Below, piece by piece: positions 905 to 15,959 of a stretch of 20,058 nucleotides of DNA. The notes beneath the pieces were generated by a model. That model had not been told where the DNA came from, searched no databases, and saw nothing but the letters and a program-made list of their open reading frames with translations. Both the position numbers and the translations under genes were made by a program. The stretch lies in the IMG/VR virus record IMGVR_UViG_2617270985_000008; one strand, given 5' to 3'. This stretch comes from a virus. Lineage: Duplodnaviria > Heunggongvirae > Uroviricota > Caudoviricetes. The first letter of the stretch is position 1. The number at the start of each line of letters is the position of its first letter.

Positions 905-916
905 CTTTCTTCCCGA

Positions 917-1078: not shown

Positions 1079-1541
1079 ATTTTTTGCTATGGCGGGGGAG
1101 GGGCGGTGGTGTGGCGATATGCAGAAACAATGGTAGTGCACGTGCTGTTTAAACTCTAAGGATGAAGCAGAATTCTTCTGCAGCTCCTCCGTATTTCGCA
1201 TAGTGAACCAGGACCTCTGTTAAACAAAAATTTTTCTGGGATTTTTTCACTCGACTTCATTTTTCCTCCTGCAATCCACCAACAGGTACCTGCGCTAATC
1301 TATCTTTTTAATCTGACAACATCTTGGGAAAAGGCAAATTCGTCAGATTTACTGTTTTTCTGCTGCCTCGAATGCCGATGTCTGAAGCACTGATAAGAGT
1401 TCTATCTCTTTGATATAGATCTTTTTTTTGATGAATTGCACGACATATTATCGTTATGACACCTTCTTGTTAAAGGTATTGTACTCCTCATCTCGATTTT
1501 ATGATGTGGGCTATGATTGGTTAGTAATAGAGTGTATCGGT

Positions 1542-1823
1542 ATGCGATGTGGTTTATTAATGGCAATCTGCCTTTGTTTAGTATCTTTTAGTGGATATGC
1601 AGCAACAGGAAAGTCTGATGCTCAGATCAAAAAAGAAATAATTAAAGAATCCATTGAATCTTATCCAGGCAATTGTGCGTGTCCTTATAATCATGCAAGG
1701 AATGGTAGTAGATGTGGTGGACGCAGTGCATATAGCCGTAATGGAGGGTATGACGTGGTATGTTATGAGGGTGATGTTACCGATGAAATGATCCGGCAAT
1801 GGAAGCAGGAGAATGCTGAGTAA
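1542..1823 (+). CDS. Small secreted Cys-rich hypothetical protein (signal peptide)
   Basis: ORF-track frame 1428..1823; the likely start is ATG 1542 giving MRCGLLMAICLCLVSFSGYA-ATGKSD..., a hydrophobic signal peptide with a probable cleavage site. The mature part has 5 Cys (PGNCACPYNHARNGSRCGGRSAY...VVCY). AT-rich. Function not recognised. Confidence 0.5.
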   Translation: MRCGLLMAICLCLVSFSGYAATGKSDAQIKKEIIKESIESYPGNCACPYNHARNGSRCGGRSAYSRNGGYDVVCYEGDVTDEMIRQWKQENAE

Positions 1824-1899
1824 TCTCTTTTAACAGGTTTGTTGTGCGAGCATTATGTGCCGTTAACGGTACACTAGCTAGTGATTGTTCCAAAAAGAA

Positions 1900-1925
1900 A
1901 ACCCGCAGTTCTTACGCTGCGGGTT
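1900..1925. terminator. Bidirectional hairpin terminator between the convergent secreted-protein and hok-like genes
   Basis: Perfect stem AACCCGCAG / CTGCGGGTT with 8-nt loop; A-run upstream on the + strand (T-run on the - strand) and T-rich downstream. Confidence 0.45.
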
Positions 1926-2011
1926 TGTTGTTCATGTCTGTGAGATAGGGTGCCACTTCAGCCAACCTTAGCAACCGATTGACGGGGGATTGCTCCCCCG
2001 TCGCGGTTTCC

Positions 2012-2152
2012 TTACTGCTTACACTGTAAGAACGCCGCAAACTCCGCTCCCCAGAAGCTCATCCGTATTTCACACAGCGAACCGTGTAGCATCCAGATGA
2101 TGAGGATTACCGTCACGCAGAACGTGATGGCTGTAAGCGATTTTTGCGACAT
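2012..2152 (-). CDS. Hok/Gef-family type I toxin (small membrane peptide), 46 aa
   Basis: Not in the ORF track (under 60 aa). Translation MSQKSLTAITFCVTVILIIWMLHGSLCEIRMSFWGAEFAAFLQCKQ has the Hok/Gef hallmarks: N-terminal TM helix, SLCEIR motif and E(V/F)AAF motif. SD AAGGAG lies 8 nt upstream of the ATG. A perfect 8-bp hairpin (GACGGGGG/CCCCCGTC, 1981-2002) follows the stop, and the upstream leader is GC-rich and structured. Confidence 0.6.
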   Translation of the reverse strand: MSQKSLTAITFCVTVILIIWMLHGSLCEIRMSFWGAEFAAFLQCKQ

Positions 2153-2342
2153 AGCGCTTGCTCCTTTGTTGGAGAGGCGCTAACCTATCACTTGCTTAAG
2201 GTAGATATGTTAGGGCCTCGGTTAAACAGAAATGTTTTCCGGGGCCTTTCCACATCCGGCCTTCGGGTATTCCTCCGACCATCAGCCGAAAGGCACCCGC
2301 GGGTAATCTATCGTTTTTTTGTTACTCCGGCAATTCTGCCTG

Positions 2343-2603
2343 TTAATTCTGAGGTAAAGGCAAACTCATCTGATTGTTTCCCCTGTGTGAAGCTGGCAGC
2401 TCATGCCACGGGATACCTTCCGAAGAGTGAACGCCGGAGGCGTGTTTTGATGTGAATTTATGGAAAGCTTCCAGTGTTGAGAAGCATACGCCGCATTCCA
2501 GGTTGTTACACTGGTAATACTTTTGCCGCACAGTGTTTGAATCGTTTTCCGGACGACTGGTGCGGATTCGGGCAGATGCGCCACAAAGCGGACAACGGAA
2601 CAT
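2343..2603 (-). CDS. ogr: Ogr/Delta-family zinc-finger late-gene transcriptional activator
   Basis: N-terminus MFRCPLCGASARIRTSR...YYQCNNLECGVCF matches the P2 Ogr Cys4 zinc-finger pattern (MFHCPLC...ARTSR...YHQC.N..C). Strong SD GGGAGG 5 nt before the ATG. Confidence 0.85.
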   Translation of the reverse strand: MFRCPLCGASARIRTSRPENDSNTVRQKYYQCNNLECGVCFSTLEAFHKFTSKHASGVHSSEGIPWHELPASHRGNNQMSLPLPQN

Positions 2604-2892
2604 AGCGACCTCCCTTAACGTGGTGCTGCCGCTATTCTAAGTTGTAATAGCTCAGACTCCAACTGACAGTTTGCGCAGCCAGAATACAATCAAACCTAGC
2701 GGTACGCTTTGTGCGAAGAGCGGAAGTTCGCAACTCCAACAACTTTGATAACCTCCGCATAAATGGAAATCGGTTGCTTACATAAGTTTATTGGCTGAGG
2801 TGCATATCGGGAAGCAAGCGGGCAGTGCCATCTTATCTGTTACAATCCCGAAATGATTGTTCAGCCCGCTTTTTCTAACAGCATGTAAACAT

Positions 2893-4032
2893 TCAGCTGC
2901 AAATTTCGTTGTTGCTGCATGTTATCTCTTCAAGTGCAGCGGCGTTATAATCAACGGAATGATCAACCTGTGATGTAGGTCTGCCAAAAAATTCAACCCC
3001 TGACATAATCATGTTGCCGATATTCTCTCGCTGTTTATCACTGAGCCTGTCCCACCACTCAGGGGATGAATATGTATTTTCGGCCTTTGTGAAGAAAAAA
3101 TACAGAAGGGTATTGAACATCCTGTTAGCTGGGATCTTAATTAGTGTCCGTATAAAACGTCTGATAATTGTTGAAGTTCTCAGCCAACTGAACACTACAT
3201 ATCCCTTACCTCCGCAGGAAAAAGCATTGAAACATACTTGTTCCGCCGACACTGTAAGATCGCTCAAATCCTGAATTTTGGTCCCATCGAAATCCCTCTC
3301 CGGTGAAAGAATTGACGAAACTACAATTGGTAAAGGCTCTGCAAAAGTGAAGATAACACTTTCAATTTCTGAAAATTGCCTGCTAAGTAGGATGCGGTCG
3401 AGGCTAGTTTTAAGATTATTTAATTCAATTATTGCTGCATTTAAGCCACTTTGGTGCTGGTCGATTAATTTCTGAATATAATACTGTTCAACTTGTAGCT
3501 TTCCTTTATCGGCATTTTTAGCAAAATCAGAAGATAGCACTCCCCCTTCTTTGGCATAAATTTCTTTAGACAATGAACGAAACATTAAGGCAAAGCACTG
3601 CTCGTCCGTGCCTGTAAATTTTTCGTTCTCTAGGCATGAAAATAAGATTCTGTCATGAACTGCACAAAATCCTGTAAAAGTGGATGCCTGATTGATACCG
3701 ATCTTCTCGGGAAGCCATTTTCCGTTGTTTCTCATCAGGCTTGCTAAGTTCATTATCACCCCCATGACGTGATTGCTGGAGTCGGCGATCGCCTTAAGGC
3801 TACTGCTCTTAGATATCGTATGCGCCTGAACGATGCGTTTATCACAATCTTCGTGCATGGATGCTGGCGCATAACATGCCTTTCTCTGCGAGAGAGACTT
3901 TGAAAATTTCAGTGCCTCGGCTTTGGATACCGGAGTTTCACGATCTCGACCAAGATGGCACTTTTTATACTTAAGTCCTGAATTACACCAGCACTTATCA
4001 TTTCTTCCTAATTTCACTTTATTGTTTCCCAC
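2893..4032 (-). CDS. Hypothetical protein with N-terminal SEC-C zinc-binding motif (prophage cargo)
   Basis: 379-aa ORF in a markedly AT-rich segment between D and ogr. The N-terminus KLGRNDKCWCNSGLKYKKCH resembles the SecA C-terminal SEC-C metal-binding motif. No Walker A or other catalytic motif recognised. Start is GTG at 4032 (or GTG at 4017); no in-frame ATG before the motif. Confidence 0.7.
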   Translation of the reverse strand: MGNNKVKLGRNDKCWCNSGLKYKKCHLGRDRETPVSKAEALKFSKSLSQRKACYAPASMHEDCDKRIVQAHTISKSSSLKAIADSSNHVMGVIMNLASLMRNNGKWLPEKIGINQASTFTGFCAVHDRILFSCLENEKFTGTDEQCFALMFRSLSKEIYAKEGGVLSSDFAKNADKGKLQVEQYYIQKLIDQHQSGLNAAIIELNNLKTSLDRILLSRQFSEIESVIFTFAEPLPIVVSSILSPERDFDGTKIQDLSDLTVSAEQVCFNAFSCGGKGYVVFSWLRTSTIIRRFIRTLIKIPANRMFNTLLYFFFTKAENTYSSPEWWDRLSDKQRENIGNMIMSGVEFFGRPTSQVDHSVDYNAAALEEITCSNNEICS

Positions 4033-4431
4033 GAAATTAATGTTCTATAACAAAAACACTTATCGAAAATAGGTGTAATTTATCACTCCGGCAGCTAAAA
4101 GATCATCTGCCACATGCACGATAATAAATCTTCCTTGCGTCATCATCTCCCTCTGTTCTTAAATCAGGTGTTGCCTGTGTGCGGAGGATTCGCGAAGTAC
4201 AGTAGCCGAAATGCATGATCTTACCCATCAATGGTGAGCACGCGATAATAAGTGAGTCCCTAATTGACCACTCATGGCAATACAACTTCAACCAGCATTC
4301 ATGACCACTATCCGTGGATTAACTGTTACATAAGCAACACCTGCTCTAGGCACAAAGCGGGCTGCCAGATTGGGTCTGGCACTGTGCTGTGAGTGTGTCA
4401 GTTCTGGTTTGAGTCAATACATCTAATTTGC

Positions 4432-5532
4432 TCATTCTGTTTCTGCTATCCATTCCGGGATTTTTGCTTCAAGCTCAAGCTGTGTGGTAAAGCCGCTGTT
4501 ATCAATGGTGTGCTCGGCTTTTGCAATAATCCAGTCCTGATTATCGATGTCACTTTTGAAGCCTGTCACCGTGCCATGCATTTCGGGATAGAGTTCTGCG
4601 CGTCCACGCGCCAGCGTGATGGAGAATGATGCGGCTCCGCGTTGTAGCTGCTGCCACTTTGCCGCCGCTGCACGTCTTGCTGCCTGCTCGTTCTGATAAG
4701 TCTTGCGTAACACAAACACGTTGCCTTCCGCACCTTCCATATAGTCACCTTCACGGCTGCTGCTTTTCTCCTTTTTCGGTTTGCGGCGTTTCACGCTGAC
4801 TTTTTTCTTTTTCCCGTAATTAAGATCAAGCCAGTAAGCACGTACCCCCGTATACGCTTCGCGGTCAGCAATGCGGAACTGATGGCGATCGCCACTGCTG
4901 CGCGTGATGGCGAACGATGGCAACGGCTGGCCCTGTGCGTTCACGCCACCGCCTGGCATGATGAATAACAGATTACTGCTTTTTACCGTAGTGATTGCGC
5001 CCAGCATTTCCGCCATGCGCGTAAGGAAGGACATGTCGCTTTCTTCGGTCTGGTCGGCGTGGTCGATTTCAATATCCATCAGCATTTCGCTGATTTGTGG
5101 TTTCAGACCGTACCGATGAGCGATGGCGGATACCACGCGCTCAACGGTCACATCATGCCAGGACACCTCACGTTTAACGTTAAATTCATCCCGAAAATCT
5201 GCGCTTCTGGCTGAAACAGTCAGCCTGTCCGGCGGTCCTTCGTGAGCGATTTCATCAACAATGTAAGTGCCTTTTTCTGTCAGCGGTTCTCCTTTCCAGC
5301 CAATGAGAACCGTCAGGCGCGCGCCCCGTGGCGGTAGCTGCAACTGACCATCCGCATCATCCAGCGTGATGGTGAGCAGGTCCGCTTCAAATCCCCGGTT
5401 GTCGGTCAGTGACAGGCTCATCAGGCGCTCTGCCACGCCGGACAGTGTTTCCCCCTCCGCGAGAATATCAAAATCCGGCATTTTCACGGGGTCTGTGCTC
5501 TGACTGAGCAATTGCATGGTGGTATCGGTCAT
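4432..5532 (-). CDS. D: P2 gpD-like tail protein (late control gene D family)
   Basis: Translation (…SLSLTDNRGFEADLLTITLDDADGQ…SARSADFR…SDGDRHQFRIADREAYTGV…EGDYMEGAEGNVF…NSGFTTQLELE) matches phage gpD. Start chosen at ATG 5532 (MTDTTMQLL…) because of a strong GGGAGG SD; the longer track ORF to 5664 adds a low-complexity extension with no RBS. Confidence 0.85.
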   Translation of the reverse strand: MTDTTMQLLSQSTDPVKMPDFDILAEGETLSGVAERLMSLSLTDNRGFEADLLTITLDDADGQLQLPPRGARLTVLIGWKGEPLTEKGTYIVDEIAHEGPPDRLTVSARSADFRDEFNVKREVSWHDVTVERVVSAIAHRYGLKPQISEMLMDIEIDHADQTEESDMSFLTRMAEMLGAITTVKSSNLLFIMPGGGVNAQGQPLPSFAITRSSGDRHQFRIADREAYTGVRAYWLDLNYGKKKKVSVKRRKPKKEKSSSREGDYMEGAEGNVFVLRKTYQNEQAARRAAAAKWQQLQRGAASFSITLARGRAELYPEMHGTVTGFKSDIDNQDWIIAKAEHTIDNSGFTTQLELEAKIPEWIAETE

Positions 5533-5689
5533 CTGTTCCCTCCCTGTGCGGCATGGTCGCATGTGCGTGCATAGGGGGTTACTGCTTTTTGTTGTCGCCG
5601 TGGCGGGAGAACGGCGCAGGGGTGAGATTACGCGCGTGGTGGGTGATGATTGTTGCCGAATCATTTAACGGATACAAGGGGCTGAAGCT

Positions 5690-6874
5690 ATGAGTGAAAC
5701 TCGTTTTCATGGTGCCCGTGTTACGGAAAGTACCGACCTGGTAACAGCGATTAATGATGTTGATTCCAGTGTTATCGGTATCGTGGCAACGGCGGATGAT
5801 GCGGACGCGGAGCTGTTCCCGCTGAACAAGCCCACACTGCTGACCCGCGTCAATGACGTGCTGGGAAAATGCGGGACTACGGGGACGCTTTATCGTGCGC
5901 TTAAGGCTATTGCAGACCAGGTGAGCACAAAAGTGATCGTCGTTCGCGTGGCTGAACACAAAGAAGAAGGCGGTAAGACGCAGGATCAACTGGTTATCGG
6001 TGGTTCTGAATCTGACGGCAGCTATACGGGGATGTATGCGCTGCTTGTTGCAGAGCAGGATGAAAGCATCGGATACCGTCCGCGTATTCTGGCCGCGCCG
6101 GAGCTGGACACGGAGGCGGTGACAAAATCCCTGTGCGTGATTGCGGGTAAACTGCGCGCGTTTGTGTATGCCTCATGTCATGACTGTAACACGATGGCTG
6201 AGGCAATTACCTACCGCCAGAAATTCAACGAACGTGAGGTGATGCTCTTATGGCCGGACTTCATCGCCTACAACCCGAAAAGTGGCAAAAACGAAACGTT
6301 CCCCGCGCCTGCCTATGCGTGCGGCCTTCGTGCGTACATTGACCATGAGCAGGGCTGGCACAAATCGCTGTCCAACGTTCCTGTTAAAAATGTGCTGGGG
6401 ATGTCCAGGCATGTTTTCTGGTCGTTGCAGGCCGAAGACAGTGATGCCAACAGCCTCAACAACAAAGAAATCACGACCATTATTCGTCGCAACGGGGTCC
6501 GCTTCTGGGGCAACCGCACACCGGAAACGAACGCCTACATCTTTGAGGTGTATACCCGAACCGCACAGGTGCTGGCTGATTCAATTGCGGAAGCGCAGTT
6601 TGAAACCATCGACAGTCCACTGACGCCTGCGAACGTGAAGGATGTTATCAGTGCCATCAGGGCAAAACTGGATTCGCTGGTTACTGCCGGGAAACTGATT
6701 GGCGCGGAGTGCTGGTATGACGTGGTGGATAACAGCACCACGGATTTACGTCAGGGGCGTGTGCGTATTCGCTACAAATATACGCCCGTTCCGCCACTGG
6801 AAGACATGGAGCTTTACCAGACGTTTACTGATGAATACTTTGAACCCGCATTTGCGGTGCTGGGAGGTGCCTGA
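5690..6874 (+). CDS. FI: Contractile tail sheath protein (P2 FI-like)
   Basis: 394 aa; motifs FPLNKP, LRAF.Y, QGWHKSLSNV, FWGNRT, YTPVPPLE are typical of P2 FI sheath. SD AAGGGG upstream. Confidence 0.9.
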   Translation: MSETRFHGARVTESTDLVTAINDVDSSVIGIVATADDADAELFPLNKPTLLTRVNDVLGKCGTTGTLYRALKAIADQVSTKVIVVRVAEHKEEGGKTQDQLVIGGSESDGSYTGMYALLVAEQDESIGYRPRILAAPELDTEAVTKSLCVIAGKLRAFVYASCHDCNTMAEAITYRQKFNEREVMLLWPDFIAYNPKSGKNETFPAPAYACGLRAYIDHEQGWHKSLSNVPVKNVLGMSRHVFWSLQAEDSDANSLNNKEITTIIRRNGVRFWGNRTPETNAYIFEVYTRTAQVLADSIAEAQFETIDSPLTPANVKDVISAIRAKLDSLVTAGKLIGAECWYDVVDNSTTDLRQGRVRIRYKYTPVPPLEDMELYQTFTDEYFEPAFAVLGGA

Positions 6875-7386
6875 TGGCTGTACCAAAACATCTTCGCTTT
6901 TTTACGCTGTTTGTGGATGGTGAAAACGAAGTGGGTAAGGTGACGTCCGTCACTCTGCCTAAGCTGACGCGCAAAACCGACAGCTACCGGGGTGGTGGCA
7001 TGATGGGTGCGGTAAGTATTGATCTCGGTCTGGACGACTCCGCGCTTGATGCGAGCTTTGTCATGGGGGGCGCAGTTCGTGAGCTGTTCCTTAAGTATGG
7101 CGGCACGATTGACGGCACGCTGCTGCGTTTTGCGGGTGAATATTACACCGATGCAGAAAGCGACCTGTATGAAGTCGAAATGCGCGGACGTGTGACGGAA
7201 ATTGATATGGGGGAAGCCAAACAGGGCGAAGCCACATCACACACTTACGCCATTAAAAACACCTACTACAAGCTGAGTGTTAACGATCGCCCGTTGTGGG
7301 AGATTGACCTGCTGAACTTCATTTACCGGAAGGACGGCAAGGACATTGTGCCCGATCGCATCCGTTCCGCGCTCGGGCTTGGCTGA
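6874..7386 (+). CDS. FII: Tail tube protein (P2 FII-like)
   Basis: 170 aa, start overlaps the FI stop (TGATG). Size, position after the sheath gene and sequence fit gpFII. Confidence 0.88.
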   Translation: MAVPKHLRFFTLFVDGENEVGKVTSVTLPKLTRKTDSYRGGGMMGAVSIDLGLDDSALDASFVMGGAVRELFLKYGGTIDGTLLRFAGEYYTDAESDLYEVEMRGRVTEIDMGEAKQGEATSHTYAIKNTYYKLSVNDRPLWEIDLLNFIYRKDGKDIVPDRIRSALGLG

Positions 7387-7440
7387 TAAGTAATATGCAG
7401 GCGGCGCAGTGCGTCGCCTCTGACTGAAAGGAGTTTCCTG

Positions 7441-7806
7441 ATGAAAGAGACGAAAAACATCGATACCGAAAACACGGTAGTTGCTGACACTGTGAAAGAA
7501 ACCAGTGAGCGTGGTGTAAAACTTACCCAACCAATTGAGCGAGGCGGCGAAAAAATCACGTATGTGGAGATCACCGGGGCTATTGAGCAGGCTGGATCTC
7601 TGCGAGATTTGTCGCTGTCTGATGTGCTGAATCTGAAAGCGGAATCCATGTTTACGCTGCTGTCACGCGTGACATCACCGCGACTGGATGAAGTGACGAT
7701 CAAAAAAATGGCATCCCGTGACTTTATTCAGTTATGTGTGGTTGCCGTAAATTTTTTGAGCGGTGCGGACTCTGGCGGGAAGAACGAACAGGCGACGGAA
7801 GCCTGA
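7441..7806 (+). CDS. E: Tail assembly chaperone gpE (zero-frame product)
   Basis: 121-aa ORF with AAGGAG SD, immediately upstream of the tape measure; contains slippery heptamer T_TTT_TTG at 7752-7758. Confidence 0.8.
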   Translation: MKETKNIDTENTVVADTVKETSERGVKLTQPIERGGEKITYVEITGAIEQAGSLRDLSLSDVLNLKAESMFTLLSRVTSPRLDEVTIKKMASRDFIQLCVVAVNFLSGADSGGKNEQATEA

Positions 7807-7970
7807 TCACGGTTGTGTGCTTTGAGCACATAGAAGACTTTGTGGCAGATATTGCCGTTATTTTTAACTGGTCGCCCGCCGAAATCTTCATGATGACGCC
7901 CGGCGAAGTGGTTAGCTGGCGTGAGCGGGCGGCACTTCGCAGCGGGAATGCAGACAATGAAGACTCTTGA
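7441..7970 (+). CDS. Tail assembly chaperone gpE+E' (programmed -1 frameshift fusion)
   Basis: The -1 frame stays open from the slippery site (7752-7758) to TGA at 7968-7970 (the track ORF 7734..7970 is this frame), giving the E+E' extension that ends where T begins, as in P2 (analogous to lambda G/GT). Confidence 0.65.
7752..7758 (+). other. Slippery heptanucleotide T_TTT_TTG for -1 ribosomal frameshift
   Basis: Sequence aaTTTTTTGag inside E, in the correct phase (X XXY YYZ) for the E frame. Confidence 0.65.
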
Positions 7971-10764
7971 TATCCGGGTCGCTTTCAGCGCCGTTGACAG
8001 GCTGACCCGGCCTGCCGAAAACGCCCGCCGCCTGATGGGGCAGTTTGGTGACTCCATCCAGCGAACGCAGGGGGCGATTAAAAATCTCGAGCGTCAGGCT
8101 CGTTCATTTGAGCGCGCCCGCGACGCTGTCAGTAAAGCGGATGCGGGTATCGTGAAAGCACGACGCCAGCTTAACGCCCTTAATCAGTTACAACGCACGG
8201 GTACAGTGCTCAGCGAAAAACAACAAAAGCTGATGCAGCAGTTAAGCACCCGGCTTGAACGCCTGAATGAATCGCGCACACGGGAAATTCAGAAAATGCG
8301 GGAGCTTGGCGGAGAGCTGAAACGCCACGGCATTTCCCTGACAGGCAGCGATAACACCATCCAGCAGGCCATCAGACGCACCGAACAGTACAACAACCAG
8401 CTTGAACGCGAACGGCAGGCGCTTGCGCGTGTAACGCGGGCGCGTGAGTGGTATTCGCGCGCGCAGGAAACCGCGGGAAAACTGAAAACAGGTGGTGCGC
8501 TGGCAATTGGTGCGGCAGCGGCGGGCGGCTATGCTGCCGGGCGTTTTTTGCAGCCCGCGATCGGGTTCGGCAAAGAGATGTCCCGCGTTCAGGCGCTGAC
8601 GCGAATCGACCAGAACAGCCCGCAGTTTAAGGCGCTGCGTGAGCAGGCGTTAAAACTTGGCTCTGAAACGCAGTTCACCGCAGGCGATGCCGCCAGTGGG
8701 CAGGCATTTCTTGCAATGGCAGGCTTCACACCGCAGGCCATTCAGGCTGCGCTTCCCGGAGTGCTGAGCATGGCAACGGCTGGCGGTATGGATCTCGGCG
8801 AGACGGCAGATATTGGCTCAAATATCCTGACGCAGTTCGGCCTTTCTGCTGACCAGATGGACCGGGTCGGTGACACACTCACCGCAGCGTTTACCCGTAC
8901 CAACACTGACCTTCGCGCACTGGGCGAAACCATGAAATATGCAGGTCCGGTGGCGGGTAAGCTGGGAATATCGCTGGAGCAGGCCGCAGCGATGGCTGGT
9001 GTGCTGGCGAATATGGGCATCAGAGGGAGTGATGCCGGGACGGCAATGCGTGCCAGCCTGGCTCGTCTGGCATCACCGCCAAAGGCGGCGGCAGAAGCTC
9101 TGAAAGAGCTGGGCGTGTCCGTCTCGGATGCCGGGGGTAAAATGCGCCCGATGGAGGATGTGCTGGCCGACCTTTATAAAGCCACCCGCAAATACGGGGA
9201 AGTTGACCGGGTATCGTTCTTTAAGGACATTGCCGGAGAAGAGGCTTTCACATCGTTTATGGCGCTCGTTGATGCAGTGGGTGACGGTTCCTTACCCAAA
9301 CTGAGAAAAGAACTTGAAGGCGCGCGCGGTGAGGCTGAACGCACAGCAAAGGTTATGGCCAACAACCTTGACGGCGATCTGAAATCACTCGGCAGTGCAT
9401 GGGAAGGGTTGCGCATCCGCATTGCAGATCTGATTGACGGTCCGCTGCGTTCTGTCACGCAGTGGCTCACGCGGGTGGTATCAAGGGTGACGGCGCTGGC
9501 GCAGGCCCATCCGGCACTGACGCGCCAGCTACTGATAGCAGGCGGTGCGTTGCTGGCAATGACTGCAACGGTTGGCTCGTTGTCGCTGGCTATTGGTGTG
9601 CTTGCTGGTCCGCTGGCAAAACTGCGTCTTGGTTTTTCTCTCCTGACCGGATCAATGAATGCTGTCAGGGTCCTGCCAGCACTATGGGGAATGGTGACGG
9701 GTTCCGTTTCTTTACTGGGAGGCGCTATCGGGGCGCTGTTCAGTCCGGTTGGTCTTATCGTGGCTGCGCTTGCCGGAGCTGCCGTCCTTATCTGGAAATA
9801 CTGGGATCCCATCAGGGCATTTTTTGCCGGGGTGTTCAGCGGGATTATGGAAAGGCTGAACCCGTTGCGTGAAACCTTTGAACGGTTTGGCCCTGTTTTT
9901 GACGCAATCGGAAGCGGGATCAGCCAGGTGTTTAACTGGTTTAAATCGCTGCTGTCACCGATGGAGTCCAGCAAGGAAACGCTGGATAAATGTACCAGTG
10001 CTGGCGAGATATTCGGTAACGTTCTTGGCGGTGCGTTACAACTTGTTCTGACACCTGCAAAAATGCTACTGGATACGCTGGCGTGGATACTTGAAAAACT
10101 TGGCGTCCTTCCGGATGAAGCGGAAAGGGCGCGCAAGAAAATCGAAGACGCACAGCGTGCGGCCATTCTTCAGGATAAGGTTGCCTTACTTCAGGGGGAC
10201 CTGGCGAAAATCAATCCGCCGAAGCCTGTGGAAAATGGCAATGGCACCGGAGGTGATAAACCCAAAGACAACAAACCGCTCACAGACAGCAATACCGGGA
10301 CGCTACGCAGACTCAGCAAAATTGCTGATAACACAGGTAAGCTGGTTGATGAGACGAAAAAACGCATTGGCCCTGGCGATATTGTCTTTAAGAACCTGCC
10401 CCGCGCACTTGCTGTTCGTGGGGAGTGGCAGGAGCGGAAGATTGCGCAGGTCAGTAAGCCTGCCCCCGCAATTAATATCACACCCGTAGTCCCGGCTCCG
10501 CTGCCTCCGGCGCTGGTCCCTGTTGTTGCGGCCAGCTCCCGCCCGGTGGCGGAGGCCATACGATCGCCAGTGGCATCAGTTCCTGCAGCTTCCCGTAATC
10601 GGGAGCCTGCTGTCTCCAGATTTGGCGGTGAAATTCATGTTCATCTGCATAACGTTGTTACGCAGAATCCCCGCGAACTGGCGAAACTGGTCGGTGAAAT
10701 GGTCAGGGCAGAAATGGAACGGCGCGCCCGTGCCGGGCGTGGCAGTTTTTACGATAAAGATTGA
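7921..10764 (+). CDS. T: Tail tape measure protein (P2 gpT-like)
   Basis: 947-aa ORF, coiled-coil-rich N-terminal half, hydrophobic Gly/Ala-rich central segments, Pro-rich C-terminus; located between E/E' and U. Track start is GTG 7921; the true start is more likely ATG 7948 or 7957. Confidence 0.85.
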   Translation: MSGRHFAAGMQTMKTLDIRVAFSAVDRLTRPAENARRLMGQFGDSIQRTQGAIKNLERQARSFERARDAVSKADAGIVKARRQLNALNQLQRTGTVLSEKQQKLMQQLSTRLERLNESRTREIQKMRELGGELKRHGISLTGSDNTIQQAIRRTEQYNNQLERERQALARVTRAREWYSRAQETAGKLKTGGALAIGAAAAGGYAAGRFLQPAIGFGKEMSRVQALTRIDQNSPQFKALREQALKLGSETQFTAGDAASGQAFLAMAGFTPQAIQAALPGVLSMATAGGMDLGETADIGSNILTQFGLSADQMDRVGDTLTAAFTRTNTDLRALGETMKYAGPVAGKLGISLEQAAAMAGVLANMGIRGSDAGTAMRASLARLASPPKAAAEALKELGVSVSDAGGKMRPMEDVLADLYKATRKYGEVDRVSFFKDIAGEEAFTSFMALVDAVGDGSLPKLRKELEGARGEAERTAKVMANNLDGDLKSLGSAWEGLRIRIADLIDGPLRSVTQWLTRVVSRVTALAQAHPALTRQLLIAGGALLAMTATVGSLSLAIGVLAGPLAKLRLGFSLLTGSMNAVRVLPALWGMVTGSVSLLGGAIGALFSPVGLIVAALAGAAVLIWKYWDPIRAFFAGVFSGIMERLNPLRETFERFGPVFDAIGSGISQVFNWFKSLLSPMESSKETLDKCTSAGEIFGNVLGGALQLVLTPAKMLLDTLAWILEKLGVLPDEAERARKKIEDAQRAAILQDKVALLQGDLAKINPPKPVENGNGTGGDKPKDNKPLTDSNTGTLRRLSKIADNTGKLVDETKKRIGPGDIVFKNLPRALAVRGEWQERKIAQVSKPAPAINITPVVPAPLPPALVPVVAASSRPVAEAIRSPVASVPAASRNREPAVSRFGGEIHVHLHNVVTQNPRELAKLVGEMVRAEMERRARAGRGSFYDKD

Positions 10765-10770
10765 GGAGTC

Positions 10771-11265
10771 ATGGCCATGATGATGATCTATGGCATGTTT
10801 GTTTTTGAGCTGCGCACGCTGCCGCATCAGCAGTTACAGCAAAACAAAAGCTGGCGGCATGTGAAAAATGAACGCGTTAACCGTTCAGCAAGCTGGCAGT
10901 ATATCGGTGCAGGTGATGATCGCATCGTTCTTTCTGGTGTGCTTTATCCTGAAATTACAGGTGGCGAAGTGTCGCTGTCTCTGCTGACCACGCAGGCGTA
11001 TACAGGACGGCCCTGGCCTCTGATTGATGGCGTCGGGCAGATTTACGGCATGTATGTCCTGACCGAAACGAATACGACCCGCTCCGAGTTTGATCGCTAC
11101 GGTAAGGCGAAAAAGATAGAATTTTCACTGACTCTTGAACGCTGTGATGAGGATTTGCGGGAGCGCCTGCAATCCTCATCGTTCAGCGATATGTTGTCCG
11201 GCTTCAAAGATAAGGTGACATCATCCCTTAATAGCGCGACCAGCTCAGTTAAGGGGCTGCTCTGA
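10771..11265 (+). CDS. U: Tail protein gpU-like
   Basis: 164 aa; TLPHQQLQQNKSWRH…LSGVLYPEITGGEVSL…WPLIDG…RSEFDRYGKAKKIEFSLTLE resembles P2 gpU. Several ATGs at 10771-10785, so the exact start is uncertain. Confidence 0.8.
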   Translation: MAMMMIYGMFVFELRTLPHQQLQQNKSWRHVKNERVNRSASWQYIGAGDDRIVLSGVLYPEITGGEVSLSLLTTQAYTGRPWPLIDGVGQIYGMYVLTETNTTRSEFDRYGKAKKIEFSLTLERCDEDLRERLQSSSFSDMLSGFKDKVTSSLNSATSSVKGLL

Positions 11266-11341
11266 TTTAACGTATGTCGCCAATTTCCTGATGAAGGTGA
11301 CTGGCGACTTGCTGTTGTATGTCCTTCTCAGAAAATTGTTT

Positions 11342-11370
11342 TTGAATAACAAACAACAGGATTTTATAAT
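11342..11370 (+). promoter_or_regulatory. Near-consensus sigma70 promoter (TTGAAT, 17-nt spacer, TATAAT) driving the acetyltransferase
   Basis: TTGAAT at 11342-11347 and TATAAT at 11365-11370; a second TATAAT at 11381-11386. About 50 nt upstream of the AAGGAG SD. Confidence 0.5.
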
Positions 11371-11421
11371 CTCTTAACCTTATAATATGTGTGGTCTGAA
11401 ATAATAATTAAGGAGATTATC

Positions 11422-11994
11422 GTGCTGTCTTACTTAATGGCAATTCACTTTGTTTTATTTGGGGACTCTACTAATTTAAAAAACTTCTGGAAATATGAAG
11501 TAATTCGGCGGAAACGTATGGATATCTGGAGGCTTTTAAGAGAGAAAAAACAGCGTAACCGGAATTTCCTTTTCTGGTGGCGGTTGGCTAACGAAATGTA
11601 TATTAATGGTAATAAATTACATAAGAAAGCAGCCAAAAAGTTAAACAGTAAAATAATTAACAAATTTGGTTGTGAAATTGGATTGGGCGCAAATATTGGA
11701 AAAGGGTTAACAATTCCCCATCATGCTGGAATTGTTGTTCATTTTGCTGTTGATGCTGGTGAAAATCTGGTGTTACGACAGAATACTACCATTGGACAGA
11801 TAGATGGTGACATGCCTGGTTCAAGAGTAAAAATTGGTAGTAACGTTGATATCGGAGCTAATTGTTGCATCATTGGATTATCACGTAAAATTGGGGATAA
11901 TGTAAAAATAGGTGCAATGTCTTTTATAAATAAAGATATACCATCGAACTGCACATATATAACTAAAAAGAGCGGTGTTGTATTGTATAAATAG
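11422..11994 (+). CDS. Hexapeptide-repeat (left-handed beta-helix) acetyltransferase, serine acetyltransferase/WcaB-like
   Basis: AT-rich ORF; C-terminal half has hexapeptide repeats (IGANIGKGLTIPHHAGIVV…IGSNVDIGANCCIIG…IGDNVKIGAMSFI). Start set at GTG 11422 with AAGGAG 6 nt upstream; the track ORF begins at 11389 without an RBS. Confidence 0.8.
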   Translation: MLSYLMAIHFVLFGDSTNLKNFWKYEVIRRKRMDIWRLLREKKQRNRNFLFWWRLANEMYINGNKLHKKAAKKLNSKIINKFGCEIGLGANIGKGLTIPHHAGIVVHFAVDAGENLVLRQNTTIGQIDGDMPGSRVKIGSNVDIGANCCIIGLSRKIGDNVKIGAMSFINKDIPSNCTYITKKSGVVLYK

Positions 11995-12002
11995 AGTACA
12001 TA

Positions 12003-12030
12003 AAGCCATCTATATTTCAATCGATGGCTT
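12003..12030. terminator. Bidirectional hairpin terminator between the acetyltransferase and the tail-fibre assembly gene
   Basis: 8-bp perfect stem AAGCCATC / GATGGCTT with 12-nt loop, flanked by AAA on the left and TTTTCTCTTT on the right. Confidence 0.5.
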
Positions 12031-12037
12031 TTTCTCT

Positions 12038-12616
12038 TTATTGTGGGGCGACTGGCCACTCAACATCCGCTGCTACCGCTGTATTAACACGATTCAACAA
12101 TACCCGGTATGTCTTCCATGCAGCCAGTAACGATGCCTCTTCCTCCGTTGCAATATCCAAATCTACGGCATCCTGAAGTGGCGCAATATGCTCGCTGGCT
12201 ACCTGCATCAGGCTGTTTTTTGTTTCTTCCGCCTCCCTTATCCGAAACAGTTTTTCTGCTTCTGCATCTTTCACCCAGGATGTGCCGTTCCACTTCTGAT
12301 ACTCTCCATACGGCGACAACCAGGTAACATTTTCCGGTAATGGACCGAGTTCAGAAATAAATAACGAGTCCCCTGATGCCACGTCATAAACCGTTTTACC
12401 CCGATGGTCTTCAACGAGATGCCACGATGCCTCATCACTGTTGAAAACGGCCACGAAGCCAGCCGGAATATCTGGCGGGGCAATATCGGTACTGTTTGCA
12501 GGCAGACCTGTATGAGGTGGAATGTATGCATCACCTTCACCAATAAACTCATTGGTTCCGGTCAGTAGATTATAAATTTTTATGGTCCGTGAGTGTTCAC
12601 TCATTCTGAATGTCAT
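12038..12616 (-). CDS. G: Tail fibre assembly protein (P2 gpG / Tfa family)
   Basis: 192 aa directly downstream of the tail-fibre gene; C-terminus (…[35 protein letters not shown]) is the conserved Tfa signature. Alternative start ATG 12604. Confidence 0.8.
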
Positions 12617-12653
12617 TATGCAAGCCTCACAATATAGTTAAATGCGATGTTTT

Positions 12654-13976
12654 TTACGGTGTTTTCTTCGTTAACTCCAGACCTGTGGCCCCCTGCATAT
12701 TATCTGTCAGGGCGGTCAGCCGACCTTTTGAAGCCAGATTAACTGACGATACTGCTGTCCCATCTGACGGTAACGCCCCGATCTCTGATGCTGTTGGCTT
12801 ATTCCTGGAGTTATAGTCCCTTCGCCAGCCAGGAGCATAAGCATCACCATGATTAATATAAGTAAATTGAGCATTAGGGATGCCTTCACCGCTGGATGTA
12901 CTCGGTGTGGTAATGCGTATGGTCATTGCGCCGCGGGTGCCAATAACTTCCACAACAGCACCTGCAAGACAAATACTTCCGCAACCTGTATCTGTAATGA
13001 CCTTATTATTTGCATAAGCCCATGAGCCTTTGCACATCCAGTAAGGATGGTTAAATGCCCCCTGACTCTCTAGCCAAAAAATCAACTGCGCAGTTGTCCA
13101 TGCTTCACTATCTCCACCAATATTCAGCTCTGCACTATATGCACGGCAGGCACCGATATTTTTCGTAAAGGTGTCTTTATCAGAGATATCCTCACCATTC
13201 TTAGCTTTCTGCAGACGTTTTTCAGCATTGTCATAGGCAGCTTTTACTGCATTTGATGTTGCCGCCAGCGTTTCAGATGTACTGTTGGTTGCACTACTAA
13301 GCTGGACAAGGCCTTTTCGCGCTGTTGTGGCATCCTGCGCTGTATATTTTCCGTTAGCAAGATCATACGCGACCTTAACCGCTTTCGGCGTTGCAGCCAG
13401 CGTTTCAGAATCGCTGTTAGTGGCGCTACTGAGTTGAACAAAGCCTTTTGCGGTCAGCGAGGCATCCGGGTGACATCGTGACTGTTCATGCTCTTTCAGT
13501 TTGTTATCCACGTAATCCACTGTGGCCATCACCATGGTGTTATCCACGGTAAGCGCCACAGTGGCAGTGCTGGATACGGTCAGAATGGTGCGAAATGTTT
13601 GTGCACGTCCGGACCCTTCGGCAACGGCTGGCTTGTAACTTTCGGCAGTATTGCCCACCGCGATTAAATCGCCGTGCTCATCAAACACACCAATTTCCCG
13701 GATCCAGAATCCGCCCGTTTCTGGAGGAATAACCAGCTCCGCAATAATGCGGTTCTGATGTGTTGCGTCCAGGATGACGCGATTAACAGTGTGTCGCCAC
13801 ACCTCATGCACCAGACGGGTCTGCTTACTGTCTGGTGTGGGCAACGCGCCGCCACCGTCGCCCACGGCCATATGAGTCAGGCGGACAGGCTTACCATCTG
13901 GCGCGGCTGCCTGAGCTAATTTTTTGGCACCTGTATCGGTGATAACGGTTTTAAATTTTCGTGTTGTGGTACTCAT
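12654..13976 (-). CDS. H: Tail fibre protein (P2 gpH-like)
   Basis: 440 aa; conserved gpH N-terminal domain (…VRLTHMAVGDGGG…RLVHEVWRH…AELVIPPETGGFWIREIG…ESYKP…) and duplicated QLSSATNS.SETLAAT motif; divergent C-terminal domain. Confidence 0.88.
   Translation of the reverse strand: MSTTTRKFKTVITDTGAKKLAQAAAPDGKPVRLTHMAVGDGGGALPTPDSKQTRLVHEVWRHTVNRVILDATHQNRIIAELVIPPETGGFWIREIGVFDEHGDLIAVGNTAESYKPAVAEGSGRAQTFRTILTVSSTATVALTVDNTMVMATVDYVDNKLKEHEQSRCHPDASLTAKGFVQLSSATNSDSETLAATPKAVKVAYDLANGKYTAQDATTARKGLVQLSSATNSTSETLAATSNAVKAAYDNAEKRLQKAKNGEDISDKDTFTKNIGACRAYSAELNIGGDSEAWTTAQLIFWLESQGAFNHPYWMCKGSWAYANNKVITDTGCGSICLAGAVVEVIGTRGAMTIRITTPSTSSGEGIPNAQFTYINHGDAYAPGWRRDYNSRNKPTASEIGALPSDGTAVSSVNLASKGRLTALTDNMQGATGLELTKKTP
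13230..13445 (-). repeat. Intragenic tandem repeat in the tail-fibre gene (two copies, 132-nt period)
   Basis: Peptide repeats GFVQLSSATNSDSETLAATPKAVKVAYD (aa 178-205) and GLVQLSSATNSTSETLAATSNAVKAAYD (aa 222-249); the DNA copies are visibly similar. Confidence 0.6.
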
Positions 13977-13978
13977 GC

Positions 13979-14509
13979 TTAATCGTCCGGATAAATGGTA
14001 ATAACTTCACCGTCATGAGTTGCCGCCGCTGCAAAAATATCCCCCGGAATTTCCTGAATGATATTCAGCCCTGTCATGTGGCGGCTGACCGGACGGGCAT
14101 CAGCAATCAACCGCTCCATTTCCAGATACATTTCCTCCGTCACGCCACTGTCCAGTGTGCCGACTTCAACGGTAAATGTTCCCGGTTCTCCGCCGAACTC
14201 CCACCACTCAGACACGCGAATGAGGTATCCCAGCGGCTCAATGGCCCTGCGCAGTGCGCTGATGGTCCCTTTGTGTCGGTGTATCAGCCATGCATCACGA
14301 ATCACCTGTCGTTTTGTCTCTTCCGGCCAGTTGCGATCCCAGCGGTCAACGGAAAATGCCCAGGCGAGATAAGGCAGCAGGTGCACCGGGCAGGTGTCCG
14401 GCGACCACAGCGTGTTGAGGTCTACCGGGATGTCTGTAATGCGCGTTCCGACAGCTTCGGCACAACGCATGAAACTGCTGGCTGATGGTGGTAACAGTGA
14501 ATTACTCAT
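13979..14509 (-). CDS. I: Baseplate protein gpI-like
   Basis: 176 aa from ATG 14509 (MSNSLLPP…), overlapping the J stop in an ATGAGTAA arrangement; motifs WSPDTCP..LLPYLAWAFSVDRWD…GYLI…EWWE…PGTF…EMERLIADA…SRH match gpI. The track ORF starts 11 codons earlier. Confidence 0.85.
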   Translation of the reverse strand: MSNSLLPPSASSFMRCAEAVGTRITDIPVDLNTLWSPDTCPVHLLPYLAWAFSVDRWDRNWPEETKRQVIRDAWLIHRHKGTISALRRAIEPLGYLIRVSEWWEFGGEPGTFTVEVGTLDSGVTEEMYLEMERLIADARPVSRHMTGLNIIQEIPGDIFAAAATHDGEVITIYPDD

Positions 14510-15257
14510 TGCGCCCACCTTCGCTGATGGTGAACGACTCACAGCGCGCCGCCTGTATGTCGCTGATGGCCATATTCTGTGTGGGTTCGATTATCTCCAC
14601 GCGTTGCACACCGTGCACATGCAGTGCGGCAGCAATGGCGGACAACGCCACGTCCTGACCGATAAGCCCCTGCTCAGCCAGCCACTTCCTGAACGACGAT
14701 TCAGCCGCCGCCAGAATAGGTTCGGATTCCGGGCCGGGGTAAAAGTACAGTTTTGCATTCAGCCGCCATGTCACGATTCTGGCGCTCTGTACCGTCAGGC
14801 GGTCGGCCACCGGGCGGGTATCCTCTGCATTCAGAACGGCGCGAACGGTATTAAGCAACGCCTCCGTTGCTGTGCCGTCGCCTTCAGTGGACAGGATGGA
14901 AACCGTCACATTTGCCGGAGACGGACTGATAGCCCGCGCATCACGCACCAGACCGCTGGCGCTGCGGGCAAAATACTCGTATGCACCTGACGGGCCAGCA
15001 ACACTCAGGCCATCGTACGCCCGCTGCGCCCGCAGTCTCAGCGAGGTGTCACTTTCCATCACTGCGTCGGTGGTATCCGTTGCCGGAGTGATGGTCAGGC
15101 GCTTTGTGTTCATATTGCCCGCGAGGTTGTCCAGGTCTGTCCCGGCGCTGTGGCTTAACATGCAGGCGCGTGCCCCCTCATTGACCCGCTGGCGTAACGA
15201 GCGTTTCACGGTTATGGAGTTCTGATGAGCAGAAAAAATAAAAAAGTGCGCATGAGT
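14502..15257 (-). pseudogene. J: Baseplate assembly protein gpJ, 5'-truncated remnant
   Basis: Translation (…RQRVNEGARA…MESDTSLRLRAQRAYDGLSVAG…RPVADRLTVQSA…YFYPGPESEPI…HVHGVQRVE…) matches roughly the C-terminal 220 aa of gpJ. Homology stops near 15210-15250, where the opposite-strand Q start abuts; about 85 N-terminal codons are missing. Confidence 0.75.
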
Positions 15258-15959
15258 TCACGCATTGATCTCGCTGATGCGCTCAGGAAAGAATCATCGC
15301 TCAGTGCATTCACATTTGATGGTCCTTATCGCCTGACCGGGCATGACCTGCTGGACAATATGTACTGTGCTGATAACGGGCGGTGGTATGAAACCCCGGT
15401 GGACTGGTACGGTCTGGCAAGAGCCGCCCGGCAAACGTCCTGGCATCAGTCTGCGCTTTACTTTAAGCGCAATGTATTGCTCGGTTGCTACATCCCGCAC
15501 CCGCTGCTTTCCCGGCAGGATTTCTCGGCGCTGGCGCTGGACTGGTTTGTGTTCGGTAACGCATTCCTTGAGCTTCGAAGCAATATGCTCGGCGAACCGC
15601 TTAAATTACGGCACGCCCTGGCGAAATACATGCGACGCGGAAGCGATCTTGAATCATGGTGGTATGTGCAGGATGGCAAGGATGCGTTTCAGTTTCGCCC
15701 AGGCAAAGTGTGCCACCTGATGAATCCGGACATTAACCAGGAAATCTACGGCATGCCGGAATATCTCGGCGCATTACTCTCGGCCAGCCTGTCTCATTCG
15801 GCGGACATGTTCAGAAAACTGTATTACGACAACGGATCCCACGCCGGGTGCATCATCTACATCGGTGCAGCGCAGGTAAACCGCGAAAGCATGGACTCCC
15901 TGAAAGAAACGCTACAGGGTGCGCGTGGTGGTGGTGCGTTTCACGTCCTCTGGAGGTGA
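15225..15959 (+). pseudogene. Q: Portal protein gpQ, 3'-truncated remnant
   Basis: 244-aa ORF with portal motifs (…NGRWYE…YFKRNVL…IPHPLLS.QDF…FGNAFLE…DINQEIYGMPEYL…YYDNGSHAG…) corresponding to roughly the N-terminal 70% of a P2-type portal; ends in unrelated sequence. Confidence 0.75.

Follow-up and report, generated by a model that had tools for sequence, protein, structure and literature searches.

Gene content and orientation of the window

The window, by which we mean the whole 20,058-nucleotide stretch of DNA analysed here, contains the tail gene D and, divergent from it, a block of tail genes running from FI to U. D (4432–5532, minus strand; phrog_52, E 2e-163) is an intact tail/baseplate hub gene whose 366-aa product is 98.6% identical to P88 gpD and 49% identical to P2 gpD; its start at 5532 is consistent with the P88 and PGAP annotations. 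The block lies on the plus strand and begins with FI (5690–6874; phrog_23, E 1e-126), an intact tail sheath gene encoding 394 aa, the same length as in P88 and 45% identical to P2 FI. It continues with the intact tail tube gene FII (6874–7386; phrog_55), whose 170-aa product is 42% identical to P2 FII, the tail assembly chaperone genes E (7441–7806; phrog_103) and E′ (about 7815–7970), the latter in the −1 frame relative to E by its coordinates, and the intact tape measure gene T (7957–10764; phrog_28 and phrog_17114), which starts as in the P88 and PGAP annotations. The final gene of the block, U (10771–11265; phrog_76), encodes a 164-aa tail protein 46% identical to P2 U. A slippery TTTTTTG lies inside E at 7753–7759 and the E′ open reading frame is in the −1 frame, an arrangement that predicts the programmed −1 frameshift of the E/E′ pair; PGAP annotates a GpE-family open reading frame at the equivalent position. 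D and all seven genes of the FI–U block are full length.

The open reading frames, together with PHROG and Pfam scans, place ogr, D, a tail-fibre assembly gene, H, I and a truncated J on the minus strand, and FI, FII, E, T, U, an acetyltransferase gene, a truncated Q and int on the plus strand. A nucleotide dot-plot against P2 was uninformative, yielding three short matches only at about 70% identity, and the comparison with P2 was therefore made at the protein level by tblastn. By this measure Q, J, I, H, G, D, ogr and int lie on the strand opposite to that of their P2 homologs and FI, FII, E, T and U on the same strand, and the set flipped with respect to P2 is exactly FI to U. The original prediction, which assigned D, ogr, G, H, I and J to the minus strand and Q, int and FI–U to the plus strand, is borne out by the reading frames, the profile scans and tblastn alike. 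The edges that it gave for the block were also accurate: the start codon of D ends at 5532, FI starts at 5690, the U stop codon is at 11265 and blastn homology to P88 stops at 11271.

The ogr-type late activator gene (2343–2603, minus strand) encodes an Ogr/Delta zinc finger (Pfam PF04606, E 5e-14) that is 42% identical to P2 Ogr by tblastn, and in an identical locus of E. coli PGAP annotates it as ogr/Delta-like. The remaining tail genes form a minus-strand cluster (12038–15209) in the main orientation of the prophage, with blastn matches to P88 and to strain 2013C-4538. This cluster comprises the tail-fibre assembly gene (12038–12616), a shortened H (12654–13976), I (13979–14542) and an N-terminally truncated J (14502–15209), identified by PHROG matches and by tblastn searches using the G, H, I and J proteins of P2. 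The truncated Q (15225–15959) and int (19057–20058) follow on the plus strand.

A deletion-riddled prophage of the P88 type

P88 aligns to window positions 4422–11271 in a single 6850-bp blastn match of 97.1% identity, which takes in D, the spacer and FI to U and is unbroken across the D/FI junction. The complete 35.8-kb P88 genome is annotated with the same strand pattern (D minus; FI to U plus; fibre genes, I and J minus), and the order typical of the genus, D(−) / FI-FII-E-E′-T-U(+) / variable locus / G-H-I-J(−), is present in the window. Elsewhere the comparison covers retained parts only, about half of the genome having been deleted; identity to P88 in these parts is 97.5% for hok and ogr, 96% for H, I and J, 98% for Q and 88% for the early genes. 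Phage phiSM also matches the window colinearly in one piece, and the same layout is found in PhiR44_2, 520873, 500465-2, 503458, P884B11 and Chuche, as well as in Klebsiella phage Kp4860-2 of the genus Reginaelenavirus. The integration site of the prophage adjoins the glyW-cysT-leuZ tRNA genes of E. coli. The window is a deletion-riddled P88-type prophage (Peduoviridae, genus Xuanwuvirus).

Deletion junctions lie at 15196–15210 and at about 15940, and the genes lost are W, V, S, R, the lysis genes, X, L, M, N, O, P, the 3′ end of Q, and A. The gene set for morphogenesis, lysis and replication is incomplete in the window; the element is a defective remnant, unable to make particles alone because it has lost the stretch from W to P, the replication region, the end of Q and part of H. 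It retains D, FI–U, fibre, I and ogr in intact form, but V, W, a full J and the capsid genes are missing.

A recent, private 5.7-kb inversion in this prophage could be imagined to have broken its F operon and orphaned D. The block is inverted relative to P2, and in a prophage independently degraded by deletions more damage would be unsurprising. The same junctions, however, are shared at 97% identity with inducible phages that are intact and with 1358 complete E. coli genomes, every one of 128 related loci has the layout even where D is as little as 60% identical, and D and the whole block are undamaged, so that a private event is extremely improbable. P88 can be induced chemically and is lytic, and phiSM shows spontaneous activity (PMC5285337, PMC6456863); an intact, inducible family of P2-like phages with divergent D and FI thus exists. 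The original prediction of an FI–U inversion consequently stands with respect to P2, where the block is inverted in place, but not as a rearrangement of the window prophage, given P88, the 1358 genomes and the 128 loci. The defect of the prophage is owed to deletions unrelated to the FI–U flip.

Distribution and age of the flipped order

The D/FI junction is found in about one in four complete E. coli genomes and is intact in 1358 of the 1379 that have it, the remainder being partial matches only. Window positions 4400–12700 are covered colinearly over at least 80% in 1356 complete E. coli genomes, and 4400–12673 is matched at 100% in at least 25 complete genomes among the matches listed. These data bear on the suggestion that a contig was joined the wrong way at 5533–5689 and 11266–11420. 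Nothing specific speaks for such an artefact, apart from the absence of the window's exact deletion variant (the J′/Q′ junction or the shortened H) from all 5426 complete E. coli genomes. Both junctions fall within long unbroken alignments to complete genomes, independent phage genomes agree, and window positions 1–12673 align in one piece with strain 2013C-4538 at 99.87%. Misassembly can be given next to no credence.

The survey of the flipped clade was limited to loci whose D protein is at least 60% identical to window D. The flipped order is present in each of the 80 viral contigs (D 63–98% identical to window D) and in each of the 48 bacterial loci taken as species representatives, which span about two dozen genera of Enterobacterales, whereas loci with D at most 53% identical are all colinear. 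The flip is therefore old and common to the whole clade. The order in P2, SEN8, Cartapus, Burkholderia BEK and Ralstonia RS-AB1 is colinear, and this order is therefore ancestral. The clean split by D identity, rather than a rooted phylogeny, is the basis on which a single origin of the flip is suggested. The FI–U inversion is real relative to P2, yet ordinary: it is neither damage nor assembly error.

The variable locus beyond U

A low-G+C cargo gene (11389–11994, plus strand; PGAP start equivalent to 11422) encodes a hexapeptide-repeat O-acetyltransferase, with Hexapep, EpsC, CysE and WcaB-like matches that all fall under the curated cut-offs. Its G+C content is 35–42%. The gene is absent from P88, where the invertase occupies the same place, and in phages JL22 and Ro157c2YLVW it accompanies genes for fibres and their assembly. 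It had been placed exactly at the right breakpoint, but starts about 120 bp past the end of P88 homology; its site is the usual variable locus after the tail-fibre genes, not an inversion scar. Scans of the cargo open reading frames with PADLOC, NCBIfam and Pfam gave no confident defence-system or function assignment.

The variable locus of P88 contains an invertible tail-fibre segment and, directly after U, a gene for a DNA invertase. The block itself might, on this ground, be a programmed invertible segment flipped back and forth by a Gin/Cin/Pin-type invertase, the more so as window positions 12810–13201 correspond by blastn to the alternative fibre segment of P88 in inverted orientation, indicating that invertase activity has acted nearby in the lineage. 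The P88 invertase, however, acts on the fibre segment, is encoded beyond the limits of the flipped block and has not changed orientation with respect to the fibre genes, and the window contains no invertase gene. Inverted repeats bracketing the block, which the original prediction had proposed to look for, are not found among the longest 25 of 55 inverted-repeat pairs in 4300–12800, none of which joins 5533–5689 to 11266–11420. One orientation is seen in 128 of 128 clade loci, and no alternative D/FI junction in the 1379 E. coli genomes, these being consensus assemblies from which rare subpopulations could escape. A return to the colinear state would, moreover, put D behind U and destroy the conserved D-side promoter geometry described below. 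A flip-flop segment is accordingly very unlikely. An invertase-mediated origin of the flip, involving the fibre crossover site and a cryptic site at U/D, was likewise considered and rejected as a simple explanation, because it would have flipped the invertase gene too, which has kept its ancestral place and strand.

A candidate shared promoter between D and FI

The divergent D–FI spacer (5533–5689, 157 bp) is proposed to be a bidirectional late promoter region. It differs from the P88 spacer at three adjacent positions and is otherwise the same. Within it lies an Ogr-type activator box, TGT-N12-AGA (5593–5610), with its dyad centre at 5601.5, which can be extended to TTTTTGTTGT-N12-AGAAC (5586–5612). 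In 37 kb of P88, searched on both strands, TGTTGT-N12-AGAAC has only two copies, one in the D–FI and one in the O/P divergent spacer. A search of the window for the exact textbook box, TGT-N12-ACA, gave three matches, none of them in the D–FI spacer and no more than expected by chance. The right half-site was relaxed because the annotated activator sites of P2 read TGT-N12-CCA/CAA, the same form as the window box. Of 72 distinct D–FI spacers of relatives, 69 contain a TGT-N12-A[GC]A box.

Predicted −10 hexamers lie 44–49 nt from the dyad centre on either side: GACCAT for the D promoter (5553–5558, minus strand), with TGc before it at 5561–5559, and GATGAT for PF (5645–5650, plus strand). The spacer thus has PP/PO-type geometry, in which −10-like hexamers flank a single dyad box at 44–49 nt on both strands and the late genes diverge from it. 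On the FI side, box and hexamer are conserved and spaced as in a PF late promoter, whose activator box is centred about 55 nt ahead of the transcription start. In the mapped late promoters of P2 the hexamers are at d = 44–50 and the transcription starts at d = 55.5–58.5, and PP and PO share one activator site. Among dereplicated spacers of the flipped clade, 26/27 and 23/23 have the motif nAnnnT at d = 44/45 next to D, and 27/27 and 22/23 have it next to FI, as do 16/16 colinear spacers; these counts are not independent, since the spacers share ancestry. In the colinear relatives, which serve as a control, it is found at this distance on the far side of the box in 0/16 spacers, which argues against simple inheritance.

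The box centre is about 82 nt from the FI ATG in P2 PF and 88 nt in the window. Between box and D ATG the distance ranges from 48 to 116 nt, and that from the dyad centre to the D-side hexamer is fixed at 44/45 nt in 49 of 50 dereplicated spacers. A fixed hexamer distance combined with a varying ATG distance points to a promoter element tied to the activator, not to a leader element. The predicted D leader in the Xuanwuvirus version would be only about 11–14 nt long, a point against the D promoter. A generic sigma-70 scan reported no promoter in the D–FI spacer. P2 late promoters lack −35 elements and score low on sigma-70 scans; the null result is uninformative, because it is expected for activator-dependent late promoters without a −35 element.

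As judged from sequence conservation, D is probably not left without a promoter, and the D–FI spacer would be a conserved bidirectional late promoter pair; we infer that its leftward element may be an Ogr-dependent promoter. The earlier description of D as divergent and cut off from the operon promoter is correct as to divergence and separation, but the notion of a cut-off is probably misleading in view of the conserved two-sided motifs of the spacer. It is also conceivable that the clade-wide flip is real and D is served by an independent promoter, Ogr-independent or read from elsewhere, the conserved D-side block having another purpose, for example as a site for protein binding or as an mRNA leader. 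The hexamers on the D side (GACCAT, AACCAT and AATCAT) are poor matches to TATAAT, and the empty sigma-70 scan and the variable distance from box to D ATG are compatible with such a reading. The near-invariant spacing of hexamer and dyad centre, the absence of the D-side hexamer from colinear relatives and the precedent of the P2 PP/PO pair all weigh against it, and we regard an independent D promoter as the less likely possibility, at perhaps one chance in several.

Origin and meaning of the divergent order

Under the reading that we prefer, in which D shares the activator box of PF, an old inversion would have turned the FI–U module together with its own PF promoter in a colinear P2-like ancestor. 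D would thereby have come to lie on the far side of the dyad-symmetric Ogr-type box of PF, and a single activator site could then drive PF rightward, through FI to U, and a D promoter leftward, a two-way drive modelled on the single P2 site for the divergent PP and PO. The leftward transcript would comprise D and, where ogr directly follows D, ogr as well; co-transcription of the two may not apply in the window, because a 1.8-kb cargo insertion separates D from ogr. That one ancient FI–U inversion was tolerated and fixed clade-wide because the dyad Ogr box works both ways is somewhat favoured. The explanation as a whole, a layout native to the P88-type clade that stems from one old inversion of FI–U with PF and leaves D sharing the Ogr-type box of PF, appears highly probable.

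The flipped FI–U order is the standard, functional gene order of P88-like phages; a description of the flip as such, or of a D promoter, was not found in the literature searched. If the proposal is true, the box of PF became the shared site for a new leftward D promoter and the fission of the operon was rescued by promoter sharing, and where D and ogr are adjacent there could be Ogr-driven feedback on ogr. As far as our searches show, a natural case of operon fission with promoter sharing is undescribed in that literature. The conserved two-sided geometry of the spacer could offer a testable example of a late operon split by inversion without loss of activator control.

The main value of the analysis is as a correction, for with P2 as the sole template P88-type prophages would by the thousand be mistaken for rearranged or broken ones. 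The divergent D/FI order is not to be taken as decay, misassembly or phase variation. It is a clade marker that sets Xuanwuvirus, Reginaelenavirus and their relatives apart from P2-, 186- and Fels-2-type phages.

Comparison with known systems

The closest known system is that of the other Xuanwuvirus phages, which share with the window the flanking hok and ogr region and the motifs of the D–FI spacer. Compared with P88, the window lacks the invertase and the invertible fibre segment and has the acetyltransferase, assembly and fibre module instead, and it has a 1.8-kb cargo gene with a SEC-C motif between ogr and D. Its losses comprise about 8.9 kb spanning W to P, together with 765 bp of H, the replication region and the end of Q.

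SEN8 (Felsduovirus) and Cartapus (Elveevirus), 186/Fels-2-like phages with an invertible fibre segment and an invertase, have the order fibre segment, invertase, FI to U, D, ogr. They resemble the P88 type in having the fibre genes, the invertible segment and the invertase beside the FI–U module. They differ in that FI–U is colinear with D and the fibre genes, that U overlaps D and that their D proteins are only about 52% identical to window D. In P88 the place and strand of the invertase are unchanged relative to these phages, and FI to U alone is turned.

In P2, the F operon FI-FII-E-E′-T-U-D is transcribed from PF and reads on into ogr. The window has the same genes, the same internal order from FI to U, the TTTTTTG slippery site and ogr downstream of D, with an Ogr-type box about 82–88 nt upstream of the FI ATG and a predicted −10 hexamer at d = 44–50, although its proteins are only 31–49% identical to those of the P2 operon. 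D does not directly follow U on the same strand as it does in P2, since D is at 4432–5532 on the minus strand and U at 10771–11265 on the plus strand; it lies outside the unit and is divergent from FI. The right half-site of the activator box also differs, being AGA in Xuanwuvirus, CCA in the P2 sites and ACA in many relatives. The nearest parallel to the D–FI spacer is the P2 PP/PO region, which likewise has a single dyad box between divergent late genes with hexamers at d = 44–49 on both strands, in a P–O spacer of 173 bp as against 157 bp in the window. The P2 box serves P and O, whereas that of the window would serve D and FI, a function assigned to it from conservation.

Gene order and orientation

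The prophage, of the P2 family, comes after pgsA (1–549) and the tRNA genes for Gly, Cys, and Leu (701–1003). Its layout was established from PHROG, Pfam, and tblastn scans and from the genes that PGAP annotates at an E. coli locus of 99.9% identity. The minus strand carries hok/gef, ogr (2343–2603), an ORF with a SEC-C motif that PGAP names "YecA family" (2893–4032), and D (4432–5532). FI (5690–6874), FII (6874–7386), E (7441–7806), E′ (about 7815–7970), T (7957–10764), U (10771–11265), and a hexapeptide acetyltransferase gene (11389–11994) are on the plus strand. These are followed on the minus strand by a fibre assembly gene (12038–12616), a shortened H (12654–13976), I, and a truncated J (14502–15209), and then by a truncated Q (15225–15959, plus), early genes (minus), an HTH repressor-like gene, and int (19057–20058, plus).

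When P2 proteins were mapped onto the window, Q, J, I, H, G, D, ogr, and int all fell on the strand opposite to that in P2, so the map of the entire prophage runs in reverse. FI, FII, E, T, and U kept their P2 strand, and exactly FI to U is thus turned in place relative to the P2 map. This confirms the inversion of the block proposed in the original prediction, whose coordinates for it were accurate.

Distribution of the inverted block

A megablast search of phage records returned eleven in which at least 80% of the query was covered at one place, at 94–97% identity. Nine of these, including P88, PhiR44_2, phiSM, P884B11, 500465-2, and Chuche, match 4422–11271 as a single piece spanning the D/FI junction; in both records of phage 520873 the match is split in two by an IS100 insertion. 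Local blastn of P88 against the window gave one 6850-bp alignment (97.1%). The complete, annotated 35.8-kb genome of P88 (Peduoviridae, Xuanwuvirus) has D on one strand and FI-FII-E-E′-T-U on the other, as in the window, and beyond FI–U it has a DNA invertase, an invertible fibre segment, and then G, H, I, J, W, V, and onward on the strand of D. P88 was obtained by induction and is lytic on E. coli strains (PMC5285337), and phiSM, from Citrobacter rodentium, shows spontaneous activity (PMC6456863). Intact, active P2-like phages with divergent D and FI, which the original prediction had itself named as evidence against its reading, therefore exist. The FI–U layout is no anomaly; it is already known and annotated as the way P88-type phages are built.

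The same arrangement is common in E. coli, where 1356 of 5426 complete genomes cover at least 80% of window 4400–12700 colinearly with it. Of the 1379 complete genomes that match an 857-bp probe spanning the D/FI junction, 1358 carry it as one intact piece, and the rest match it only in part. An assembly artefact is made very unlikely by the intactness of this junction across phage records and E. coli genomes. A segment that still flips back and forth is likewise very unlikely, given the fixed junction, an inverted-repeat search in which none of the 25 longest of 55 pairs in 4300–12800 brackets FI–U, and the absence of an invertase gene from the window.

Eighty viral contigs were chosen by D-protein alignment (D 63–98% identical to that of the window), and FI, FII, U, and ogr were located in them by tblastn. 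In all 80, FI, FII, and U are opposite in strand to D, 130–200 bp separate D from the start of FI, and ogr follows closely behind D. A scan of one bacterial genome per species gave a split as clean as in the viral contigs: the 48 loci whose D is at least 60% identical were all flipped, and those whose D is at most 53% identical were all colinear, with FI to U on the strand of D. The flipped loci span a wide range of Enterobacterales, including Salmonella, Citrobacter, Klebsiella, Enterobacter, Serratia, Erwinia, Pantoea, Pectobacterium, Providencia, Xenorhabdus, Photorhabdus, and Yersinia. Klebsiella phage Kp4860-2 (Reginaelenavirus) is also flipped; P2, Felsduovirus SEN8, Elveevirus Cartapus, Burkholderia phage BEK (Tigrvirus), and Ralstonia phage RS-AB1 are colinear. 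Colinearity is therefore the ancestral state, and the flip is probably a derived trait that marks a single large clade. The complete flipped layout was also seen in an assembly labelled as a Firmicute, Vagococcus sp. WN89Y (NZ_JBQPOM010000071.1), in which D (9001–10095) is 98% identical to E. coli D; this contig is probably contamination or mislabelled enterobacterial sequence.

State of this copy

D and every gene of the block are full length. The frameshift signal of the tail chaperones is conserved: E contains the slippery heptamer TTTTTTG of P2 type (7753–7759), and E′ is in the −1 frame. The prophage is defective for reasons other than the block layout. Across a 15-bp overlap at 15196–15210, J runs into the beginning of Q; the missing ~8.9 kb held genes for the baseplate, lysis, head, and terminase, namely W, V, S, R, the lysis genes, X, L, M, N, O, and P. 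A second junction at ~15940 joins Q to the early genes, truncating the 3′ end of Q and removing the replication gene (endonuclease). Compared with E. coli 2013C-4538, 765 bp (255 codons, in-frame) are missing from H, and the junction at 12668–12673 has a 6-bp overlap. Neither the J/Q nor the Q/early junction occurs in any of the 5426 complete E. coli genomes, and none of them carries this precise deletion variant.

Between ogr and D, which adjoin in nearly all relatives, lies a 1.8-kb insertion of low G+C content (2644–4421, 39–43%) that P88 lacks. The only recognised feature of its 379-aa minus-strand ORF is the N-terminal SEC-C motif, and the ORF has no PHROG match. From the early region to int (17604–19051) there are three plus-strand ORFs: the HTH repressor-like gene (134 aa), a phrog_5825 member with a weak Flk-like match (216 aa), and a DUF2511 ORF (115 aa). 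PADLOC made no assignment for these three, and the C/cox region of P88 is unlike them.

The right edge and the acetyltransferase gene

Homology to P88 ends at 11271, six bases past the U stop. The segment that follows (11272–12037) holds the plus-strand acetyltransferase ORF (35% G+C), whose hexapeptide-repeat product has EpsC-, CysE-, and WcaB-like matches, all under curated cut-offs; a hairpin at ~12003–12035 separates its stop from that of the convergent assembly gene. The original prediction took this gene to be cargo at an inversion breakpoint. The site is, however, the locus that commonly varies at the fibre operon end, where P88 has its invertase and invertible fibre segment and P2 has Z/fun; it is not an inversion scar. 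In the window and in many O26, O103, and O111 STEC genomes, the low-G+C acetyltransferase gene adjoins a gene for fibre assembly and the 3′ end of a fibre gene, and this module recurs in the unrelated phages JL22 and Ro157c2YLVW at 93–95% identity. The acetyltransferase gene may be a conversion gene whose product modifies surface polysaccharide. Within the tail-fibre gene, 12810–13201 matches, inverted and at 88% identity, the alternative silent-copy fibre segment of P88; the gene looks like a frozen "flipped" state of an invertible fibre segment whose invertase has since been lost.

A candidate bidirectional promoter between D and FI

Transcription from the late promoters of P2 requires Ogr, which binds a dyad lying ~55 nt ahead of the start site. 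The 157-bp D–FI spacer (5533–5689) does not contain the exact textbook pattern, TGT-N12-ACA; the sites of P2 itself are TGT-N12-CCA/CAA. The spacer does hold TTTTTGTTGT-N12-AGAAC, with the box at 5593–5610. In P88, TGTTGT-N12-AGAAC is limited to the D–FI spacer and the divergent O/P spacer (37 kb, both strands). The latter (21579–21601 in the P88 record) has the same extended box, TTTTGTTGT-N12-AGAAC, an indication that Xuanwuvirus Ogr favours AGAAC as its right half-site; hexamers CATCAT and TAATCT lie there 44–50 nt from the dyad centre.

A TGT-N12-A[GC]A box occurs in 69 of 72 distinct D–FI spacers of relatives, with its inner 12 nt free to vary. When 27 dereplicated spacers were aligned by the box, all 27 had, on the FI side, an nAnnnT hexamer beginning 44 or 45 nt out from the dyad centre; on the D side 26 had one at this spacing, mostly preceded by TGn, and almost none occur at other offsets. 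In an independent bacterial-genome set, the hexamer is present on the D side of all 23 spacers and on the FI side of 22. Among 16 dereplicated colinear relatives, the hexamer is present on the FI side in every case and on the far side of the box in none. Given this two-sided geometry, we propose that the spacer holds a pair of divergent late promoters. Rightward, PF would have its predicted −10 element, GATGAT, at 5645–5650; leftward, a D promoter would use GACCAT on the minus strand at 5558–5553. D, thought in the original prediction to be cut off from the operon promoter, would not be left promoterless under such sharing, a model drawn from conservation and spacing. This apparent promoter sharing, accompanying the clade-wide flip, is the one modestly new point here; literature searches found no description of it.

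SEN8 and Cartapus have the order fibre segment, invertase, FI..U, D, ogr, and P88 has fibre segment, invertase, U..FI on the other strand, D, ogr; nothing but FI–U and its upstream promoter region is turned round between them. The proposed spacing resembles that of the mapped P2 promoters PP, PO, PV, and PF, which have TAGCCT, GAAACT, CAATCT, and GAAAAT at 44–50 nt from the dyad centre and starts at 55.5–58.5 nt. The divergent PP and PO of P2, with starts at 3016 and 3127, likewise have one annotated site in common.
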